From the IMG/VR virus record IMGVR_UViG_3300011115_000650: DNA of 64,000 nt; one strand, given 5' to 3'. The position numbers were made by a program, and so were the translations under genes. Shown one piece after another: positions 12,779 through 55,090 of this stretch (its first letter is position 1; every line of letters starts with the position of its first letter). Source of the stretch: a virus. Under the pieces are notes generated by a model that did no database searches, was not told where the DNA came from, and saw nothing but the letters and a program-made list of their open reading frames with translations.

Positions 12779-13326
12779 AGGAGATGACGGGAGTCGAACC
12801 CGTGTCTTGATATGGAAACGTAACACCAACGTCTCACACGCTTAGCTACTCTGTTCTACTCAGAAGCAGGAGGTAGATCTAGGGTGGAATGCTTATCTCA
12901 GCAGCAGACGTACGAAACGTTCCCTTGATTAGTAATGGGACTGTAGTGGTAGCTACAGTAGGTCCACCACTTGGTTGATTCGGGTTCAACCAAGAAAACC
13001 TTTAGAGATCACCTACCAAAGGTAAATGATTAACTCAACCGCCCCGATTACACACATTCTTGACGGGGATCATTCCAACATTGTGACCACTTTACGGTAG
13101 TTGGATATGCAAATTTTGTAACTATTCTGTTCCAAGGTCAGTCACCAACCTGAAGATTACGCTGCTACAGCAACTGACTCGAAAGCCATGTTGATGATAG
13201 ATGCACCGATTTCTTGACGAGATGTTTTTTCTGCGTTTATTGTTTTACAAGTATTTAAGGACGTTCATGCTTTGTCCGCGTGTGGTGCTACCCTTCTGCA
13301 TACCAATCAAATGCCAGGACATCCCC
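12779..13326 (-). ncRNA. ssrA: tmRNA, ~548 nt, tag AEKTSRQEIGASIINMAFESVAVAA*
   Basis: 5' GGGGAUG pairs with 3' CAUCUCC including G3-U70; T-arm GGUUCGACUCC; resume context AAUAAAC|GCA; tag ORF 13157-13234 ends in AA. Confidence 0.93.
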
Positions 13327-24058: not shown

Positions 24059-24094
24059 CTAATTGGAAAGTGGTGCTTTAATTGTTGGGTGTGA
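24059..24094 (-). pseudogene. Relic thyA 3' end (SHPTIKAPLSN*)
   Basis: TCA CAC CCA ACA ATT AAA GCA CCA CTT TCC AAT TAG downstream of the HEG; the active thyA ends SHPAIKIPLSN*. Confidence 0.88.
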
Positions 24095-24104
24095 TTAAAA
24101 TACA

Positions 24105-24929
24105 CTAATCTACAAACATCCAATTGTATTTATTTGAGTTGCATCTGTAGTTAACTAATCCTCTCGTAATACCAAAAGCTTTTGCTGCTTCCTGACCTGT
24201 TTGATAGAGAACACCATCAGCTTTTACTTTCTTGCTATTTGAAGGCTTGATTGTTCTAGCATTAGCGTACTCTCTAAGCTTCTGTTTAGTTTCTTCCGTA
24301 TGGGTCTTTCCGTAAAATGGATTGTTAGCTCCTGACCTATCTCTACATTTACCGCAAGCTTTAGACGTCGGATCTATTCTTGCTCCACAATCACAAAAGG
24401 TACGTCCTCCTTTCCAATTTGGATTATTATCACCTTCATAACTTCGACGATTATTCGTACACCTCTCGATCAACTCGGTTGGCTTTTGCTTGCCTTTCCA
24501 GTACCCTTCCTTTCCATACATTCCATTATTCTGTCCTCTAACCTTAGTAGACCTCTCCTCTCGCTCTTCTGCTGATAGAGAATCCCAATACTGCTTTGCT
24601 GTTATTGATTTCTTTTCAAGGTACTCCGGATCGGTGTAGTTGATAAAACTAGAGGTATCACCACCGGTTCCTCCTTCAGTTAGGTTGTATCCGTTTTCGA
24701 TAGCGTTCTTTTCTTTAATCCAGTAAACCTCTCTACTGTTAAGATCTTCCTTATCTATACACTCTTCTAAGATACACTTTGTAAAATTCTCTAGCCCATA
24801 CTTCTGTATAGCTGCTTTGATTAGCTTGCCACTACCAAAATACGAATCGAAGTTAGATCCGCTATACTGTCCAATGTACATTTTTCCATTGAGATTATTT
24901 TTAATCTCGTAGACTATAAATCTTTTCAT
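24105..24929 (-). mobile_element. GIY-YIG homing endonuclease with NUMOD3 repeats
   Basis: IVYEIKN...MYIG...YFGSG, GYNLTEGG, NPFYGKTHTEETK. Confidence 0.9.
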
Positions 24930-24984
24930 ATTGATACTGTGTTAGGTTTACCCTTTAATATAAATATCAGAAAAGTAGAAAAAG

Positions 24985-26148
24985 CTAATTAGAAAGTGGA
25001 ATTTTTATAGCTGGGTGGCTTTGATATCCTTCGATAATAAAATCACCAATCTCATAATGTGCGATGTCATCAACTTTACTATTTAGTATTTTTAACTTCG
25101 GTAATGGGTATGGCTCCCTACTAATCTGTTCCTTAACACCATCAATTTGATTTAGGTAGATGTGACAATCTCCCATATTCGCAATTAATTCATCAGGAAC
25201 CATATTAACTTCTTTGGCTATGATTTCTAAAAGTAGAGCATAACTTGCGATGTTGAATGGGGTACCCAACGGAACATCTTGACTTCTAGTATTATACATT
25301 AAAGAGATTGCTCTGGTTGGGATATTCCATTTATTCATTAACTCAATTATGATGTCATCTTCATTTCTACTATGTCCATAATCTAATAATGATTCATATT
25401 TAAGAACATCAATAGCGTAATCCTTTCTTTCATTTAAACTCAACTCTCTTGTATAAACTTGAAATCCATAATGACAAGGTGGAAGTACCATTGAATCCAA
25501 TTCTCCAACATTCCAAGCATTAACCATTAATCGTCTTGAGTCTGGATTTGTTTTAAGGTCGTTGATTAGGTTTGCGATTTGGTCAACTGCACTCGTTTCT
25601 ACTACAATACTATCATCTGACATATTGTACATTTCCTCAAATTTTCTACGTCTAACATTAGTTGTTTCCCATCTTCTCCATTGATGTCCATAAATTTTTC
25701 CGAGTGACCCCCATTTATTAGCAAACTCATCATCTGTTTTGATTTTGTTGATAAATTCTTCTTCTGATAATATCTCACCATTTTCATTAAATGGTGTTGG
25801 TTTTATTTTTTTACCACCATCTATTTTTAAATAAAAATCATATACTTCTTTATTTTGATTAATTTTTTCAAAAAACGATTTATATGCGTCACCTGTCCAG
25901 ATATTACATTCATTATCAACTAAGTACTTAATATTAGTATCTCCACGTAAGAACCAAAGAAGCTCAGTTACCATAGTTTTAAAAGCTATCTTCTTGGTAG
26001 TTAGGAGTGGAAATCCTTCGGACATTTTATGTCTTATCTGTCTTCCAAATACTGATATAGTACCCGTTCCTGTTCTATCTTGTTTAGTTACCCCATTGTC
26101 TAAAATGTCTTGGAGTAGGTCTGTGTATTGTTTATCTATTGTATTCAT
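24985..26148 (-). CDS. thyA: Thymidylate synthase with large insertions
   Basis: DRTGTGT, ELLWFLRG, PDSRRL, LPPCH, RSQD..LG.PFN, GDCHIY. Confidence 0.95.
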   Translation of the reverse strand: MNTIDKQYTDLLQDILDNGVTKQDRTGTGTISVFGRQIRHKMSEGFPLLTTKKIAFKTMVTELLWFLRGDTNIKYLVDNECNIWTGDAYKSFFEKINQNKEVYDFYLKIDGGKKIKPTPFNENGEILSEEEFINKIKTDDEFANKWGSLGKIYGHQWRRWETTNVRRRKFEEMYNMSDDSIVVETSAVDQIANLINDLKTNPDSRRLMVNAWNVGELDSMVLPPCHYGFQVYTRELSLNERKDYAIDVLKYESLLDYGHSRNEDDIIIELMNKWNIPTRAISLMYNTRSQDVPLGTPFNIASYALLLEIIAKEVNMVPDELIANMGDCHIYLNQIDGVKEQISREPYPLPKLKILNSKVDDIAHYEIGDFIIEGYQSHPAIKIPLSN

Positions 26149-28223: not shown

Positions 28224-29873
28224 TTAGAATCCCATGTCCATTCCTAGATCTGGTTGTTGTTCTGTTTTCTTGTCTTCTTTCTTAGTAAAGATTACTGACT
28301 CGGTAGTTAGGATAGTGCCTGCTACTGATGCTGCATTCTCTAGAGCGATCCTGGTCACTTTAGCTGGATCTAATAAACCCGTCTCATATGCATCCACTAC
28401 CTTACCTAATTTAGCGTCATAGGTAGCGTTTGTAATATCAGCAGTTTGAATATCATGTAAGATTGCATACCAATCTTCGATACCGGCATTACTTAAGATC
28501 TTCCTAAACGGTGCTTGACAGGCTTGATGTATAATCCTTACACCCTTTCTTTCATTCTCTGACCATTCCGTAGTCTTACTAACCGCTTGATTAAAGGCAT
28601 TGATCAGAGCTACTCCACCTCCAGGTACTATACCTTCAGCTAGAGCGGCCTTGGTAGCAAATAATGCATCCTCTACCCTATCCTTCTTCTCTCTCATCTC
28701 TACTTCTGAATTACCTCCTACTGTAATAATGGCTACACCTCCAATTAACTTACCTAATCTCTCCTGTAACTTCTCTTTCTCGTAAGGTGATACTCCAGGT
28801 CTATCTAATTGATCTTTGATCTCTTGAGCTCTTAACTTAATTGCTTCTTCGGTTCCTTTACCGTCGATGATAGTTGTCTTCTCCTTATCTACAGCCACTG
28901 TCCTAGCTTTGCCTAGCATAGTCTCTAACTGCATAGCATTGAGTTTCTCCAACTTTAAGCCCTTGTCCTTACTTATCACCTGTCCTCCGGTTAGAATAGC
29001 GATATCCTCAAGCAATAGGGTTCTACGCTCACCAAAGTCTGGTGCCTTAACTGCGCAAACCTTTACAATACCTCTCATCTTGTTAACGATTAGAGTAGCT
29101 AGAGCTTCATCACCGAAGTCTTCTGCAATCAATAACAAAGACTTATTCTCGGCATTTGCCTTAGATAGGACCTGTACCATCTCTTGAGCAGTATTAACTC
29201 TACCGTCATAGATCAAGATATAAGGATCATCTAATACACTCTGCATGGTGGTGTTGTTGGTAACGAAGTAAGGTGATTTATAACCTCTATCAAACTGCAT
29301 ACCCTCGACTACTTCTAAAAAAGTCTCTCCGGTCTTAGATTCTTCAATCGATACCAAACCCTCTCTACCTACCTTCTCTAAAGAGGTTGCGATTAGGTTT
29401 CCTACCTCTTCATCACCATTACCTGAAATCATAGCCACTTGCTTGATCTGAGCTTCGGTAGAGATGTCTTGAGCTTGTAGCTTTAATTCCTCTACCACTA
29501 ACTTTACTACCTTGTCTATACCCTTCTTAACTTCAACCGGGTTAGTTCCTTGGTCGATTAGCTTTAAACCATCTTCAACGATCGTAGTCGCTAATATGGT
29601 TGAGGTTGTAGTACCATCACCTGCTTCATTAGCAGATTTGATTGAGACTTGCTTAACTAGTTGAGCTCCGATATTCTCTACCTCGTCTTTTAGTTCCGTA
29701 AAAGCTTTGGCAACAGCAACACCATCTTTGGTTACCCTAATGCCATTTACTTTGTCTTCAATTAAGACCGTTCTACCACCAGGTCCTAGGGTCGAAGAAA
29801 CTGCTAGGTTTAGTTTCTTAATGCCCTGGGCTAGTTTTGTTTTTAGTTCTGTGCCTGTTATGTTTTCTATCAT
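28224..29873 (-). CDS. groL: Chaperonin GroEL
   Basis: [30 protein letters not shown]. Confidence 0.97.
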
Positions 29874-34855: not shown

Positions 34856-35212
34856 CTAGTTATGTATTAGTGTATTTGTTGTTAATAAGTCTCTCAATTC
34901 GTAGTATATGTCCATGCTTGGATCGATATAAATTACCTCTCCTGCTTTATATAATACAGGTACTCCTTGACGGAGTATTCGGGCATCTTCTAAGAAAGTA
35001 AACTTACGGGTACCTGTAAAGACGAATAGGTCTTGAGATAGGTGTTTATAAGGGACTATATTGTTTAGTTTCCTTCGTCTTCTATCACAACCACAATCCT
35101 CCTTACCTCTCAATCTGGCGATAAACGTAGCTAGTTTATCCAGGCCAAAAAACTTGGTAAACTTAGCTACACTATCTCCTAGTCCTACTGCTTTAGTACT
35201 TCTTACTTCCAT
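34856..35212 (-). CDS. Hypothetical phage protein
   Basis: GLGDSVAK...DCGCDRRR.KLN motif. Confidence 0.65.
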   Translation of the reverse strand: MEVRSTKAVGLGDSVAKFTKFFGLDKLATFIARLRGKEDCGCDRRRRKLNNIVPYKHLSQDLFVFTGTRKFTFLEDARILRQGVPVLYKAGEVIYIDPSMDIYYELRDLLTTNTLIHN

Positions 35213-35912
35213 TTGCTAGTTCTATGTTTTTGTAGAACTCCGCTCTTGCAGAATCTTCATTTAGAAAGCATCCTGTCAACTTAGCTGTTTGCATTGATGC
35301 ACCTTGATGTTTAACACCTCTACACGATACACAGTTATGTGTTGCATTAATCATTACAGCTACTCCTAGGTTATCCTCACAGATCGTATTTACTGCATTG
35401 TGAATAGCTACAGTTAACTGCTCTTGTATAGCTCCTCTTCTTCCGAAGTGCTCTACAATACGGTTTAACTTAGATAGTCCTACTACCCTGCCGTGTTCAC
35501 TAGGTACGTACGCTATCGATACTGTTCCTGAGATAGTTTCAAGGTGATGACTACATACACTAGTTACTGGTATATTACTTTCTTGGACAATCCCAGAATA
35601 TCCATCGCTTGGAAAGCTAGTAATTTCGTCCATCAGCTTATACCTACCTGCAAATTTATCTTTGACGTAAGCCTTAGCCACTCTCTTAGGTGTATTAGAA
35701 CTATTTGGATCATTCTTCCAATCCACTCCTAGAGCGGTTAGGAAATTACCAAAATGTAGAGCAGCTTCTTCGATGATAGCCTCTTTATCTCCTTCTGTTA
35801 ATTCACTCTTTCCCTCTTTTAGGTTATGAGCTAATTGCAGAGAGATGCCATTAGCATGACCGGGTTGAGCTATTTCTAGCTCATCGATTTTTATTTCTGT
35901 GTGTTTATTCAT
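35193..35912 (-). CDS. folE: GTP cyclohydrolase I
   Basis: TPKRVAK, SVCSHH, GLSKLNR, QEQLT, HNCVSCRG. Confidence 0.95.
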   Translation of the reverse strand: MNKHTEIKIDELEIAQPGHANGISLQLAHNLKEGKSELTEGDKEAIIEEAALHFGNFLTALGVDWKNDPNSSNTPKRVAKAYVKDKFAGRYKLMDEITSFPSDGYSGIVQESNIPVTSVCSHHLETISGTVSIAYVPSEHGRVVGLSKLNRIVEHFGRRGAIQEQLTVAIHNAVNTICEDNLGVAVMINATHNCVSCRGVKHQGASMQTAKLTGCFLNEDSARAEFYKNIELANGSKKY

Positions 35913-36105
35913 AATCTATAATATATGGACTTTATTGCTGTTCTCCAACTGCTTGTAATTCTTCTTGAGAAGGTTCCCAATTAAACTGTGATTCAGGCGG
36001 TAGCCCGTTTTTCTTCTTTTTTGCTTTTTGTACTCCGTAAATTAAACTACCTATACAGGTAGCTATAATTAGTACCACGATTGTTAATACTGTTGTTGTC
36101 ATAGA

Positions 36106-36492
36106 TTAGAAACTTAAGGTGTAGATAATTCTGATTGAAATTGATTGGGGGTCGTATTTTGATATCTCAGCATCTTTAGCTACTTGAAAATCTAAAGAAG
36201 AACCGTTTTTGGTTTGTACCCATAGTTCTTTAATGAATTTGGTATCTGTAATTTCATTTTTCTCGTTACGGATTAATTCAAATACCGCTACTTTTGTTTG
36301 TGTTACTGTCATTTTGTTTGTGTTTAAATTTAATGTTGTTCCTGTTGTTACATATCCTTGAAAACTGCTAGTATCGAACCACTTTGTAGTCATGTCTAAG
36401 TATGTTACGACTGGTGTTGCTGTAAGAGTTCCACCGTTTGCTACATATGCACCTAGCGAAGTTAGAGCAGGTCCTGTTGTTGATGTATTCAT
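36106..36492 (-). CDS. Hypothetical protein (start uncertain)
   Basis: ORF track. Confidence 0.55.
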   Translation of the reverse strand: MNTSTTGPALTSLGAYVANGGTLTATPVVTYLDMTTKWFDTSSFQGYVTTGTTLNLNTNKMTVTQTKVAVFELIRNEKNEITDTKFIKELWVQTKNGSSLDFQVAKDAEISKYDPQSISIRIIYTLSF

Positions 36493-36502
36493 TATTATTT
36501 AT

Positions 36503-36781
36503 TTAGTTATCTAATAAATTTCTCCATCTCTTTTGAGTTTCCCATGGATTACTCACATACTCGTTTATTTCTTTCATAGCCGATTCTGTAGTTTCAAAAG
36601 CTATTGATTTACATCCTACATTAACAGTACACCCTCTACTAAGGAATCTTACTGTAATTTCGTACTCCTGTAATACTTCTTGTTTACTTCGTCTATACTC
36701 TTTTTTATCTGGGTAGCATTCTTCTACCGGTATTGGCGGTATTTCAACGTCTAATGGTGCTAATTTGTCAAAGCTTGGCAT
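36503..36781 (-). CDS. Hypothetical protein (start uncertain)
   Basis: ORF track. Confidence 0.6.
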   Translation of the reverse strand: MPSFDKLAPLDVEIPPIPVEECYPDKKEYRRSKQEVLQEYEITVRFLSRGCTVNVGCKSIAFETTESAMKEINEYVSNPWETQKRWRNLLDN

Positions 36782-36811: not shown

Positions 36812-36913
36812 TTATCCTAGTCCAAAGACTACATGTGCAAATAGTAAACCTAGTATACTACTTACTACTATTATACCTATTTCAAATAAGGTATCTTTTG
36901 TTTTCTGTGTCAT
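36812..36913 (-). CDS. 33-aa single-TM peptide
   Basis: Manual translation MTQKTKDTLFEIGIIVVSSILGLLFAHVVFGLG; follows the last array repeat. Confidence 0.5.
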   Translation of the reverse strand: MTQKTKDTLFEIGIIVVSSILGLLFAHVVFGLG

Positions 36914-36914
36914 G

Positions 36915-37109
36915 TTATGTATTTAATGTTTTACCGTACTTTTTTAGAATGTATTGTAGTTTAGACATTCCTTTGCTTAATCCTTCTACTGTAGGTACTT
37001 CTTCATCATACATGGTTAGTCCTTCTACAATTACGGACTCTGCTTCTACACAATCAAAGCAAAATCCCATTCTTAGCTCTTTTTCTCTATTGCAGCATTT
37101 ACATTTCAT
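36915..37109 (-). CDS. Cassette ORF, Zn-finger-like, ends KTLNT
   Basis: CKCC...CFDC. Confidence 0.65.
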   Translation of the reverse strand: MKCKCCNREKELRMGFCFDCVEAESVIVEGLTMYDEEVPTVEGLSKGMSKLQYILKKYGKTLNT

Positions 37110-37112
37110 AAT

Positions 37113-37319
37113 TTATACGTTTAATGTTTTATTCCATATTGTACTAAATACAAATGTGTTTCCCTCTTGTCCCTTTCCCGAAATATTCATTCTTTTATTG
37201 GTATTTTCACATACAACATATTCGATGCCCTTTGAGTCTAGTTTACCAGTGTAGTTTTGATGTGTTTTTCCGCATCTACCGCAGTTATCTGTTTTCCACT
37301 TATTACTAGTCTTTTTCAT
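37113..37319 (-). CDS. Cassette ORF, ends WNKTLNV like QueE
   Basis: CGRC..H...C. Confidence 0.65.
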   Translation of the reverse strand: MKKTSNKWKTDNCGRCGKTHQNYTGKLDSKGIEYVVCENTNKRMNISGKGQEGNTFVFSTIWNKTLNV

Positions 37320-37328
37320 ATTATGCGT

Positions 37329-37523
37329 TTAGTGTTTTATTAATAGATCTAATTCAATAATTTCTGGGTAGCCGTAGTAAGATTTTTTCTCTAGTATTTC
37401 TTTAACATATGATTCAGCATCTGCTTTATTAAAGAATACTTTAGCGTATTCAAAGTCATGCGGTTCGTACTCCATCTCTCCACATACTAAATAGCATTTC
37501 GGTTTAGGGATATCTAGTTCCAT
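37329..37523 (-). CDS. Cassette ORF, hypothetical
   Basis: ORF between repeats. Confidence 0.62.
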   Translation of the reverse strand: MELDIPKPKCYLVCGEMEYEPHDFEYAKVFFNKADAESYVKEILEKKSYYGYPEIIELDLLIKH

Positions 37524-37540
37524 ATTATACGTTTAATGTT

Positions 37541-37801
37541 TTATACTTTTTCGTACGTTGCTTCGAATATGTCTGGTTTACATGGGTAGTACTCTCCTTT
37601 TATGCCTCTGATTATATAATCGCCTATTGAAGCAACCATCTCTCCTTCTAGGGTTGGTATCTTTATACATGATTTACCATTATCATCTCTTGAAACTTTA
37701 AAATGTGATACTTCATTAATTGAAAATTCATCAAGACATCTGAAGTTTCCATCGTACTGTACCGCTTCAATTACTACTGGTTTTTTTCTGTATTGTGCCA
37801 T
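37541..37801 (-). CDS. Cassette ORF, common phage protein
   Basis: YRKKPVVIEAVQ...TLEG.M....GDYII.G..GE.YPCKPDIF..TYE. Confidence 0.8.
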   Translation of the reverse strand: MAQYRKKPVVIEAVQYDGNFRCLDEFSINEVSHFKVSRDDNGKSCIKIPTLEGEMVASIGDYIIRGIKGEYYPCKPDIFEATYEKV

Positions 37802-37832
37802 ATTATACGTTTAGTGTTTTTTAACTAACTTT

Positions 37833-37916
37833 CTATTTTTTACTTCTATCGTGTATTGTTATTTCGATTCCTCCACAAAGAAATATGATTATTATTAATA
37901 TTACGACTGCTACCAT
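37833..37916 (-). CDS. Cassette ORF, 27-aa hydrophobic peptide
   Basis: Manual translation MVAVVILIIIIFLCGGIEITIHDRSKK. Confidence 0.45.
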   Translation of the reverse strand: MVAVVILIIIIFLCGGIEITIHDRSKK

Positions 37917-37917
37917 A

Positions 37918-38769
37918 TTATACGTTTAGTGTTTTATCCCAAGCGGATATATGTAATCTTGTTAAGCCTCTAAATCTATACTTCTTAGCCATCTCTAATA
38001 CGAATTGAGTACGCTCATGGAAGTCAGTTTGACTATCTAGTCCCGGCATACAAACCACGTTGGTAAGAGGTATGCGATATGGTACGATAAAGTCACGGAA
38101 TACTTCCTTAACATCATCTTCAGTTGAAATAACGAACTTAAATTGATAGTTATCATGCTCCATAATACGTTTAATAGCGTCTGGATTGATACGTTGTTTC
38201 TCAGTCATACCTGAGTTGGATAGCTTTGGTGAGCAGTTGATTTGACTTAACCAACTAAATAACTCATCTTCAATTACTATAGTACCGTTAGTTTCTATTT
38301 CATGGTACGGTATACATTCTTCAGTACTACCTGGTTGTTTTAATTCCCAATTACTCCAATACTCTAAAAAATTAACAATCGCCTCTTGATGTCCTTTAAT
38401 TGTAGGTTCACCACCAGTCCAAATAATGTGGATAGTACCATCTAGAATATCTTCATAGATACCTTGTTCCTTCCATTGATCAATCAGATATTGAAACTCC
38501 TTATCTTCACCTCTCCATAACCATTGTGATGTTGAATCACAGGTCCAGGTTGCTTTACCTTCAGCATGTAAATCACCGACGAATATCTCTCCGTCTTCTA
38601 GTTTTTCTTCTTTAGCTAATTGATTAGTAAACTTACGACTCATACCACAGGTTAGGTTGCATATACCTAATCTAACGAAATAAGACGGTACACCGCTACT
38701 TATTCCCTCTCCTTGGACTGAATAGAAGTCTGAGCTAATCAATAACTTGTTTGGATCTATTTTACTCAT
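37918..38769 (-). CDS. queE: 7-carboxy-7-deazaguanine synthase (radical SAM)
   Basis: FYSVQGEG, FVRL..CNLTC...CDS, TGGEP, IETNGT, SPKL. Confidence 0.93.
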   Translation of the reverse strand: MSKIDPNKLLISSDFYSVQGEGISSGVPSYFVRLGICNLTCGMSRKFTNQLAKEEKLEDGEIFVGDLHAEGKATWTCDSTSQWLWRGEDKEFQYLIDQWKEQGIYEDILDGTIHIIWTGGEPTIKGHQEAIVNFLEYWSNWELKQPGSTEECIPYHEIETNGTIVIEDELFSWLSQINCSPKLSNSGMTEKQRINPDAIKRIMEHDNYQFKFVISTEDDVKEVFRDFIVPYRIPLTNVVCMPGLDSQTDFHERTQFVLEMAKKYRFRGLTRLHISAWDKTLNV

Positions 38770-52991: not shown

Positions 52992-54011
52992 CTAGTTGAC
53001 CTTGAAATATCGGAGATAGTCGAAGGTGTCGTAGATCCATGTAGATACATTGGGTATAGAATTTCCTAAATAATCTTCATTGTATAATTTTAGAAAGCTT
53101 GCCTTATCTAGAGTACTATTTGGATTGTTTATAACATTGTCTACCGTAACTATATCTTCTTCCGGTAAGTTAACATCGTGTAGATCCATTAGGAGTTTAT
53201 TGATTAGTAGCTGTTGTCTAAAATCATGAATCTTTTTAAACTTATCCTGCGTTAGTTCTGCGTGTTTTAAAATCTTTTCAATCGTAACCAACTCATCTCC
53301 CCCTAATTCCGGTACCATTTTTAATAACGTCTTCATACCTATTCCATGTACACCGGGTACATTATCGGATTTATCTCCTAGAAGGATCTTCTGGGTTAGA
53401 AAGTTTATCGCCGATACACCGTATTCTTCTTTTACACTTTTAGGGGTATAGAATTTTTTCTTGATCGGTGAATAAACCGTTACTCTATCAGAGACTAATT
53501 GAAGATAATCTTTATCCGAAGACATGATATGTACCGAAGTACCTGCTTTACCGGTGATATAACCTATGACATCGTCTGCCTCCACCTTATCGATACTTAG
53601 TAAATCTACTGGAAGACATTTTAGATAATCTACCAGTCGTACGATTTGGTTTGTGATTGCATCTGATTCTTCTGCTTGAGTTTCAAAGCCTTCCCAGTTA
53701 GATATCTTATTAATCTTTCTGTTAGCTTTATACTCTGGATACAGGTATCTTTTATTTGTAGATCCTCCATGCCCATCGAAGACCAGGATGACACGCGTTG
53801 GTTTGATATGTCGGATTGCAAACCCTATAGACTTTAAATACCCTGTTAATCCTCCGATATGATTGCCTTGTGGATTGATGTGATTGATCATTACAAAGCT
53901 CCTTAGGAAGGTGTTGAGAGAATCGACAAGCAAGATCTTGCTGTTTCGATGCGAAGACTCTTGCTTGGATTCTTTTAGGCTATCAATGATAGCTTGAAAT
54001 TCTTTATTCAT
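52992..54011 (-). CDS. 5'-3' exonuclease / flap endonuclease (T4 RNase H-like)
   Basis: VFDG, YKANR, EADD, SSDKD, GDKSDNVPG..GIG. Confidence 0.93.
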   Translation of the reverse strand: MNKEFQAIIDSLKESKQESSHRNSKILLVDSLNTFLRSFVMINHINPQGNHIGGLTGYLKSIGFAIRHIKPTRVILVFDGHGGSTNKRYLYPEYKANRKINKISNWEGFETQAEESDAITNQIVRLVDYLKCLPVDLLSIDKVEADDVIGYITGKAGTSVHIMSSDKDYLQLVSDRVTVYSPIKKKFYTPKSVKEEYGVSAINFLTQKILLGDKSDNVPGVHGIGMKTLLKMVPELGGDELVTIEKILKHAELTQDKFKKIHDFRQQLLINKLLMDLHDVNLPEEDIVTVDNVINNPNSTLDKASFLKLYNEDYLGNSIPNVSTWIYDTFDYLRYFKVN

Positions 54012-54016
54012 ATACT

Positions 54017-55090
54017 TTATTCTGCTTCTGAAGCATCGAAGATATCTCGTGTATCCTCTGCCGCTTCTTCAATAAGATCGAAGTCTGTTGATCCTAAAAC
54101 TGATAACCATTCTTGTGAGTGATCTTTTTTGTATTGATCGATTGCTTTCTTATCGTCAGCTATAAAGCCATGTGAGGTCATGACAATCTTACCTTCCGTC
54201 TCTACACCTGTAACGTGATTTTTGTCACAGGAGATTTTAGTACGTTTAGCAAATTGTACTGTCTTACCACCTTTGGTTGCCTTGATCTTATTAGTACCTG
54301 AGTTAGCGATGTTACCAAATGTAACCACCATACTAGCATCAAAGTACATCGTATCTCCACCTTTATTCTTTAGCTTTGGTTGCTCCATTGGTGATCCAGG
54401 TTTTAAAACCCACACCTTATTAATAGCTACAAAAGTATTAGTGTAAATTTGATTTGACTTACGTGATAAAGGAAACTTCTGATTGATGAAATTACCGAAT
54501 TGAGTCGACATCGCTCCTGCGTTCCATTCGTTGTTATTGGATGCTTTCTCTACCGACATTCTACAGGGAATTGAACCTACTGAGTCCCAGAAGAAGCATA
54601 GTTCATAAGGTAGTTTACCTCTCTTCTGTTCATCTAAGATATCTACTACAAACGCAGCAACATCTTCAATAGTTCCTAATTTCTCTCTGTCGACATATAA
54701 AAAGAATCCATCATAGTCCACAACCTCTCCAGTTACAGGATCGGCTACTTCTTCGAATTGGAAGCCCATCTGACGGGCATGTTCCCAAGACCATTTCATC
54801 TCGGTGATAATCAAAACAGGTAAGATGCCCATCTTCTGTGCCTGTACGGCAGCTTCTAGTAAACAAGTCGTCTTACCTGTATCTGAATGACCTCTCAATA
54901 ACGTTATATGCCCGATAGGGATTCCAGGTACACTTACTGTGTCTTGGAATGCTTGTGATAAAGGTATCCAGGTTTGAGTTTTAAACTTTACCGGAGATGA
55001 GGATAGGTTTTTTGATTTCTTAAACCCGCTCAAATCAGGTGTAGCGTTGATCGCACTAGATAACTTTGCATTTAGAGATGCTTTAGCCAT
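54017..55090 (-). CDS. RecA/UvsX-like recombinase
   Basis: GIP.G.IT...G.SDTGKT, WDSVG, KGG. Confidence 0.88.
   Translation of the reverse strand: MAKASLNAKLSSAINATPDLSGFKKSKNLSSSPVKFKTQTWIPLSQAFQDTVSVPGIPIGHITLLRGHSDTGKTTCLLEAAVQAQKMGILPVLIITEMKWSWEHARQMGFQFEEVADPVTGEVVDYDGFFLYVDREKLGTIEDVAAFVVDILDEQKRGKLPYELCFFWDSVGSIPCRMSVEKASNNNEWNAGAMSTQFGNFINQKFPLSRKSNQIYTNTFVAINKVWVLKPGSPMEQPKLKNKGGDTMYFDASMVVTFGNIANSGTNKIKATKGGKTVQFAKRTKISCDKNHVTGVETEGKIVMTSHGFIADDKKAIDQYKKDHSQEWLSVLGSTDFDLIEEAAEDTRDIFDASEAE

Follow-up and report, generated by a model that had tools for sequence, protein, structure and literature searches.

Why should the last codons of a conserved gene be repeated in front of one small gene after another? 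This question is raised by the 64,000-nucleotide viral DNA of IMG/VR record IMGVR_UViG_3300011115_000650 (hereafter the window), in which the 3' end of queE, a gene for a QueE-like radical SAM protein, recurs five more times downstream, on the way to folE, which encodes a GTP cyclohydrolase I-like protein. The repeat, hereafter R, delimits a series of cassettes that each carry a single small open reading frame (ORF). Taken together, the data discussed below indicate that R is probably a portable stop/restart junction, the copies of which serve as short homologies for the recombinational shuffling of cassettes within a 7-deazaguanine operon. More precisely, alignments of wild relatives show gain, loss, replacement and relocation of units bounded by R. 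In these exchanges R would act as a short homology through general recombination, annealing or copy choice, and it would allow ORFs without a promoter of their own to be expressed from the queE-folE transcript.

In this region of the window, the genes and the six copies of R are without exception on the minus strand. The queE gene (37918-38769; 283 aa; phrog_2076, E=2.7e-38) ends in WDKTLNV, and the master copy of the repeat consists of its last six codons together with the stop. The 18-mer AAAACACTAAACGTATAA is found exactly at 37918-37935, that is, at the queE end, and at 37803-37820, with one mismatch each at 37525-37542, 37321-37338 and 37113-37130, and in a more diverged form at 36915-36932, the sixth copy returned by a repeat-family search. 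The spacings between successive copies are 115, 278, 204, 208 and 198 nt. By chance, 0.21 matches to the 18-mer would be expected per window, and six copies were reached in none of 100 shuffles. With its flanks, R covers about 22-24 nt and reads (A)TAAAACAYTAAACGTATAA, followed by 1-3 nt and an ATG. In other words, R corresponds to the last 18-24 nt of queE, and the remnants found between the cassettes repeat the 3' end of the conserved upstream gene.

Each R-bounded interval consists of one ORF whose ATG stands 1-3 nt beyond the TAA of the repeat, and the six cassette ORFs, c1 to c6, represent six different similarity families. The first junction copy, R1 (37914-37937), lies within the queE end and extends through the ATG of c1 (37833-37916), a hydrophobic 27-aa singleton whose stop falls 13 nt before R2 and for which no family match was obtained in Pfam or PHROGs. 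R2 (37799-37822) is made of the exact 18-mer, a T and the ATG of c2 (37541-37801; 86 aa), a member of phrog_419 (E=1.7e-36), whose function is unknown and whose family is widespread in phages, with 347 IMG/VR loci. At the nucleotide level, c2 also displays 70-79% similarity over about 110 nt to phages of Streptococcus, Acinetobacter, Erwinia, Bacillus and Staphylococcus. The stop of c2 is the first TAA of R3 (37521-37544), while c3 (37329-37523; 64 aa), for which a weak DUF7336 match stays below the cut-off, ends in IKH at the second TAA of the junction copy R4 (37317-37340). The two following ORFs are both Cys-rich and use the repeat in frame as their own C-terminus: c4 (37113-37319; 68 aa) ends in WNKTLNV, and c5 (36915-37109; 64 aa), which starts behind the junction copy R5 (37107-37132; TAA-ATT-ATG), ends in GKTLNT. 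Finally, R6 (36911-36934), the most diverged copy (AAAACATTAAATACATAA), is followed by a C and by the ATG of c6 (36812-36913), a hydrophobic 33-aa ORF and the last gene preceded by R. A first-pass annotation, made from the letters of the DNA only, had already described the five further copies of the queE end and their spacings, the single unrelated ORF per interval with its ATG 1-3 nt after the repeat, the two ORFs ending in the repeat as QueE does, and the gradient from an exact copy nearest queE (R2) to the most diverged distal one (R6), all of which our analysis confirms.

What kind of element is R? In its canonical form, it presents a TAA in all three frames, and the relatives of the window make use of each of them: among the ORFs ending in R, 20 stop in frame, 11 at the second TAA and five at the first. 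Counted by family, with the in-frame KTLNV endings first, the figures are 14:9:5, which is not clearly different from equal use. Since ORFs end at all three TAAs, R behaves as a joint at the DNA level rather than as a selected peptide. The KTLNV C-terminus of QueE is conserved as protein in relatives L011, L027 and L106 despite different, synonymous codons, which designates queE as the source of R.

Comparison of the relatives reveals how changeable the interval is. IMG/VR contains 236 contigs with a QueE at 75-85% amino acid identity, including complete genomes of about 160-175 kb with terminal repeats. In 68 of 80 relatives folE is located downstream of queE, at a distance of 88 to 5770 bp from the queE stop. 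In the window, the array is followed by g7, g8 and g9 (92, 128 and 56 aa; 35932-36781), which are variable queE-folE genes without R junctions, and then by folE itself (35193-35912), the conserved far border of this hypervariable interval. Among 96 non-redundant loci, four have no copy of R, 62 have one, 22 have two, five have three, and one locus each has four, five and six, the window being the largest array. The ORFs found directly behind R fall into 30 families and 26 singletons, that is, at least 56 ORF types, and 26 of the 30 families occur next to two or more different upstream neighbours. The cassettes are single-gene, promoterless and of the same orientation, and their number and order differ between relatives. 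The first-pass annotation had predicted that gene content behind queE would vary with breakpoints at the repeat; it is indeed highly variable in the 96 loci, with breakpoints enriched at R.

Individual junctions illustrate this best. Relative L130 carries c4 (95% amino acid identity), a single R, and then c6-g7-g8-g9-folE: it equals the window minus exactly the 198-bp R-to-R unit of c5, and the two high-scoring segment pairs (HSPs) of the alignment overlap on its single R. The same unit is also absent from L131, and a 74% homolog of c5 occupies a different array position in L090/L009. In the same line, L011 equals L027 plus one unit made of a 62-aa ORF and R. L090 and L091 share 99.96% identity as far as the ATG that follows the second R and then continue with different cassettes. 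A further case is c3-c4, which is 97.7% identical between the window and L106/L002 although queE is 75.6% identical; the shared block has its left edge at R3. Six differences separate the window from L106 within this block, and four of them cluster in the 20 columns of R4, as if this copy had been converted by another R. At the level of the whole data set, 55 of 193 ends of segments with at least 92% identity fall inside R, as against 2.2 expected for random positions, and a breakpoint occurs at 13 of 41 internal R junctions compared with 37 of 659 other gene junctions (Fisher p=1e-6, queE's own copy being left out); these counts, which come from related, non-independent loci and in which HSP ends are drawn towards a shared repeat, weigh less than the individual cases.

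Further junctions were found in Logan contigs of sequencing runs, those from other studies being single low-depth contigs. In a contig from another freshwater/riverine study, a near-identical queE is joined after R1 to another ORF; in run X4, c2 is preceded beyond R2 by a different sequence; and in run X6, c4 is joined after R5 to a different ORF. A joint in X5 from 37541 to 37918, which would place c3 directly behind queE, is weak, with 27 letters on one side and 90% likeness. No circle-like joint is listed for the contigs of runs X4-X6, in which rare forms would be invisible. Since short repeats can mis-join contigs and the window is of metagenomic origin, one may ask whether the array was created by faulty assembly or is a repeat that arose by chance. 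This is hardly credible: at 22 nt, R falls short of the k-mers with which contigs are usually assembled, dozens of independent IMG/VR contigs from different samples share the architecture, the window is matched exactly by contigs from three runs of a single study and in parts by other studies, and chance is rejected by the shuffle test mentioned above.

Are new cassettes added at one end? The first-pass annotation had proposed a polarized acquisition next to queE, and the frequency of R does fall with rank from queE (65, 22, 14, 11, 7, 4 and 0%). Nevertheless, close relatives differ at internal copies too, as in L011 versus L027, L090 versus L091 and the c5 indel, and R-linked cassettes also exist at loci other than queE, so that strict polarity is not established. 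The exact 22-mer is found away from queE in eight IMG/VR contigs, one of them of 334 kb, and in three of the eight the ORFs adjoining R belong to families of the queE arrays; for instance, a pair of 71-aa and 54-aa ORFs of L091 is found in L032 downstream of another gene. Other relatives have homologs of c2 and of the 198-aa family F29 after folE, where R is lacking, and for the c2 homolog of L027 the homology runs from the ATG to the edge of R. These R-less homologs, together with the copies of R at other loci, indicate that cassettes start out as ordinary genes and, once recruited, move about together with R. As a separate observation, the exact R of the 334-kb contig (L036:2369-2390; IMGVR_UViG_3300046820_001270) is preceded by an ORF ending in NKTLNV and lies in a long run of ORFs of 60-110 aa; the ORFs near it match no family of the queE arrays, and it may represent an R-linked cassette in a different phage lineage.

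In terms of expression, R could also be conserved chiefly as a signal of RNA-based regulation or of translation, for instance a repressor operator or an optimised restart, the array having grown by local duplication and its mobility being incidental. R is indeed positioned exactly at -22 to -1 of each ORF, where initiation regions sit, the stops nearest the ATG are those used most (20:11:5), and gene starts of this phage have an A-rich context without Shine-Dalgarno (SD) sequence. However, the signal of a regulon should recur throughout the genome, whereas R is confined to its slot. This could be assessed in the 64-kb window and in five complete or near-complete relatives of about 170 kb, which define the scope of all genome-wide tests. 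The 11-mer core TAAACGTATAA does not occur outside the array in the window, and the only other match to the 18-mer with at most three mismatches there, at 13229-13246, has no ATG after it and does not lie at a gene junction; it was rejected as a further copy of R and regarded as a chance match. In the five relatives, the 18-mer (at most two mismatches) is present once, at the queE end, except in one genome that has one extra copy 205 nt downstream, giving one to two copies per genome. The upstream regions of other genes are A-rich and otherwise quite unlike R. The generic gene-start signal that the first-pass annotation had set against its own interpretation is therefore rejected, the motif being locus-specific. 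Besides, the ORFs between the copies are unrelated, some of them have R-less homologs elsewhere, R has no match in Rfam, and conservation at synonymous sites of the queE end is modestly raised only (rank 7 of 36 windows), for which reason it was not used as a sign of an overlapping function. Altogether, a purely regulatory origin of the array appears very unlikely.

Signals of mobile or separately transcribed cassettes were also looked for. Single-stranded DNA folds of the six copies with 20 nt on either side reach 0 to -3.3 kcal/mol (z scores of -0.16 to +1.41 versus shuffles), which leaves no attC-like fold, and there is no inverted repeat at the array junctions. No sigma-70-like promoter was detected on the minus strand between 36800 and 37940, a region which as a whole has fewer such sites than shuffles, and the array has no intrinsic terminator or stem-loop. 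The TATAAT inside R abuts the ATG and thus cannot serve that ORF as a promoter. Promoter, terminator and RNA-family readings of R were accordingly rejected. With regard to enzymes, no tyrosine recombinase (PF00589) and no serine recombinase (PF00239) was matched in the five complete or near-complete relatives, positive controls of the PF00589 search having matched in 14 of 14 genomes and the window not having been scanned ORF by ORF. Neither the six cassettes of the window nor ten cassettes of relatives contain a nuclease or recombinase domain in Pfam or PHROGs searches, in which only the phrog_419 match of c2 and sub-threshold matches were obtained. Among the cassettes of relatives, families F27 and F34 (L091:4899-5123, L090:3283-3555 and L015) are recurrent, measure 73-113 aa and start with a twin-arginine-like motif, MNNRRDFLKM; with a PF10518 match below the cut-off (E=5.7e-4), they may be small exported proteins.

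These data bear directly on the idea of a site-specific capture, in which an unrecognised enzyme of the phage or the host, be it a nuclease, a transposase-like protein or a novel recombinase, would recognise R and insert or excise cassettes as in an attC x attI reaction. Several features would agree with it: the boundaries of R are sharp on both sides in 50 contexts, R stays with cassettes that have moved to other loci, including the 334-kb contig, its density drops with rank from queE, and it is short for homologous recombination. Against this stand the lack of tyrosine and serine recombinases in the five relatives, a repeat without palindrome or fold, the lack of nuclease or recombinase domains in the cassettes tested, and the fact that exchanges occur at any copy of R and not at one entry site. 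In addition, the copies drift and decay, as in L015 and L091, which is what would be expected if no enzyme had to recognise them. We therefore regard such a capture as improbable, and the same holds for R as the recognition site of a dedicated, integrase-independent system that would add new genes next to queE in this freshwater phage family. Were it true, the phage would carry a functional analogue of the integron based on a different enzyme and on a 22-nt unstructured site, by which small accessory genes, perhaps for anti-defence, would be brought into an expressed slot of the 7-deazaguanine operon. Of the gene-capture array of the first-pass annotation, what stands is the cassette array with gene content changing at the repeat; integron membership does not, there being neither attC fold nor recombinase. 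As candidate machinery, the same annotation had named UvsX and a Cas4-like nuclease. The window does encode a UvsX-like recombinase (54017-55090; phrog_97, E=7.8e-18) and an exonuclease (52992-54011; phrog_107, E=9.7e-34), both on the minus strand; they are candidates, and nothing links either of them to R.

How, then, could a gene end become a repeat? One explanation is sequential displacement, by homology-facilitated illegitimate recombination or by insertion of the homing-endonuclease type, the incoming DNA being anchored in queE. A new queE end together with a new gene would strand the resident queE end, and one copy of R would be added on the queE side at each acquisition. This accounts both for a repeat that is a gene 3' end and for its concentration next to queE, and orphan arrays of type VI secretion system (T6SS) and Rhs loci have been explained likewise (PMC5361080). 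A locus of the same architecture exists in the window itself: at 24059-25020 (minus strand), thyA ends in SHPAIKIPLSN and is followed by a 274-aa GIY-YIG-like ORF (24105-24929), after which an orphan, diverged thyA end (SHPTIKAPLSN) lies at 24094-24059, a topology like that of the queE repeats. In haloarchaeal viruses, too, queE adjoins HNH genes; it is annotated directly beside an HNH endonuclease gene in the Haloarcula viruses KC292029 and MZ334524, and the queE end may be a recurrent insertion site in unrelated viruses. On the other hand, displacement should leave remnants of variable length, yet those of R are uniformly 18-24 nt; no cassette among those tested resembles an endonuclease; and the indels and swaps at internal copies, as well as the loci away from queE, need an exchange between copies of R anyway. 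As a full explanation of the array displacement is hence unlikely, and it may rather be the source of new R copies than a complete alternative.

The model that we favour, R as a stop/restart junction and short homology, can be summarised as follows. The queE-folE gap of a freshwater phage of about 170 kb, whose genes start without SD sequences, is a hyperplastic slot inside a 7-deazaguanine operon, filled with promoterless single-gene cassettes that are separated by the approximately 22-nt R. The repeat itself would have arisen from the final codons of queE with their stop, joined to the beginning of the following gene, and would fulfil two tasks. As to expression, an unstructured A-rich stretch with TAA in three frames and an ATG 1-3 nt further on would terminate any preceding ORF and permit re-initiation of the next one on the same transcript. 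A stop and A-rich restart had been assigned to R in the first-pass annotation; it fits the SD-less, A-rich start context, and the role itself is one that we infer. As to plasticity, co-infecting relatives or sister copies would recombine at dispersed copies of R, and such exchanges would delete, insert or replace whole R-to-R units or carry them to other loci, with no need for a dedicated site-specific recombinase. For the first gain of R by a new ORF, analogy points to displacement-type insertions anchored in queE, because R is a gene end, is concentrated next to queE and has a similar counterpart at the thyA locus.

Several observations weigh against this model, besides the non-independence of the breakpoint counts. 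With its 18-24 nt, R does not exceed the length of homology that is generally regarded as efficient for recombination of the RecA/UvsX type. Many cassette changes in the queE-folE interval take place at junctions without R, such as the g8 indel: in contigs of two independent runs, X5 and X6, position 36098 is connected directly to 36489, and g8 is precisely absent, with 4 nt fitting both sides. A homolog of g8 is found directly behind queE's R in L067. Since, in addition, 62 of the 96 loci have no extra copy, R is not required for plasticity here. Finally, in each of the 50 contexts examined, internal copies extend past the 18-mer by 0-6 nt, with a sharp left edge, and purely homology-driven or illegitimate events alone would not predict such an edge. 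It could come from a site-specific cut or from selection on an initiation region of fixed length, and the uniformly short, sharp-edged remnants leave room for either.

Some features of the phage place these data in context. The window has a G+C content of 35.5%, and 95 of its 100 tiled ORFs are on the minus strand. Upstream of its gene starts, A makes up 45-60% of the sequence and T occupies position -1, and an SD-like motif is present at four of 100 starts; this A-rich SD-less context suggests a host of the Bacteroidota type. In an INPHARED nucleotide search, whose best matches were short and weak, Flavobacterium phage immuto was the sole, weak match to a cultured phage; no close cultured relative was found in this database, and the best QueE match among cultured phages is 34% identical. 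The runs containing sequences of the window derive from viral, riverine, lake and freshwater metagenomes. In addition to the UvsX-like recombinase and the exonuclease, the proteins encoded in the window include a family A-type DNA polymerase, a DnaB-like helicase and a full-length GroEL-like chaperonin (28224-29873; phrog_5725, E=3e-145). In L047, L014, L048 and L067, several larger genes (families F5, F10, F13 and F14) are preceded, 10-25 nt before their ATG, by a motif close to TTATATTTAYA, a candidate family-specific promoter that is distinct from R.

The interest of this locus goes beyond one phage. Small accessory genes hold the host-takeover and anti-defence functions of phages, and their turnover is poorly understood outside T4 and its promoter-early stem-loop (PeSL) cassettes. 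Here, a 22-nt piece of a coding end would both make inserted ORFs translatable and mark the sites of exchange. It also provides a search rule for hot spots of accessory genes, namely the last codons of a core gene repeated downstream of that gene, and, R being a defined short sequence, any recombination activity that it has is directly testable.

To which known system does the array come closest? It is a hot spot of cassette shuffling, and it is neither an integron nor a relative of integrons. Like integrons, it is composed of promoterless single-gene cassettes in one orientation, separated by a recurring site, presumably expressed from upstream, and variable in number and order. The attC site of integrons is an imperfect palindrome of 57-141 nt, whereas R is unstructured and measures 18-24 nt, exchanges at R are not limited to one entry site, and neither IntI nor another tyrosine or serine recombinase is found in the complete or near-complete relatives. 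Clusters of attC sites have been reported in phages (PMC9892861).

The orphan arrays of Rhs, contact-dependent inhibition (CDI) and T6SS effector-immunity modules, attributed to C-terminal displacement and homology-facilitated illegitimate recombination (PMC5361080), offer a second comparison. There as well, the 3' end of a conserved gene is repeated between displaced genes and growth is expected on the side of the conserved gene, but the remnants of R are uniformly short and sharp-edged, the genes are not toxin/immunity pairs, and the units move between loci. Insertion by homing endonucleases, as seen at thyA, yields the same succession of gene end, inserted ORF and orphan end as the queE end, cassette and copy; the thyA insert, however, is a 274-aa GIY-YIG-like ORF with a single duplication, while the queE cassettes encode 27-86 aa without nuclease signature and form a six-copy array.

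Among described systems, the PeSL cassettes of T4-type phages come closest. The PeSL is an intergenic element of about 100 bp that combines a sigma-70 promoter with a stem-loop terminator and an SD sequence, and some 50 copies of it are present per genome (Arbiol et al. 2010, PMC2839356; Comeau et al. 2014, PMC4122927). A further mark of PeSL cassettes is the excised mini-circle with a single ORF and one chimeric repeat. In both cases, short conserved repeats border small ORFans in hyperplastic regions, indels and replacements among relatives are bounded by the repeats, recombination between repeats is proposed to proceed without a dedicated integrase, and the repeat carries expression signals for the downstream ORF. 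R differs in being four to five times shorter, at about 22 nt, in deriving from the coding end of a conserved gene, in lacking promoter, stem-loop and SD sequence so that it would act on translation and not on transcription, and in being confined to essentially one slot per genome, with a few other contigs carrying it elsewhere. Beyond PeSLs, no published description of mini-gene arrays with stop/start junctions was found in the literature. R would thereby extend repeat-mediated modular shuffling to an SD-less lineage, to a junction working at the level of translation and to a slot in a DNA-modification operon. Without IntI and attC on the one hand, and without promoter, stem-loop and many copies on the other, R departs from the defining features of both integrons and PeSLs while sharing their logic.

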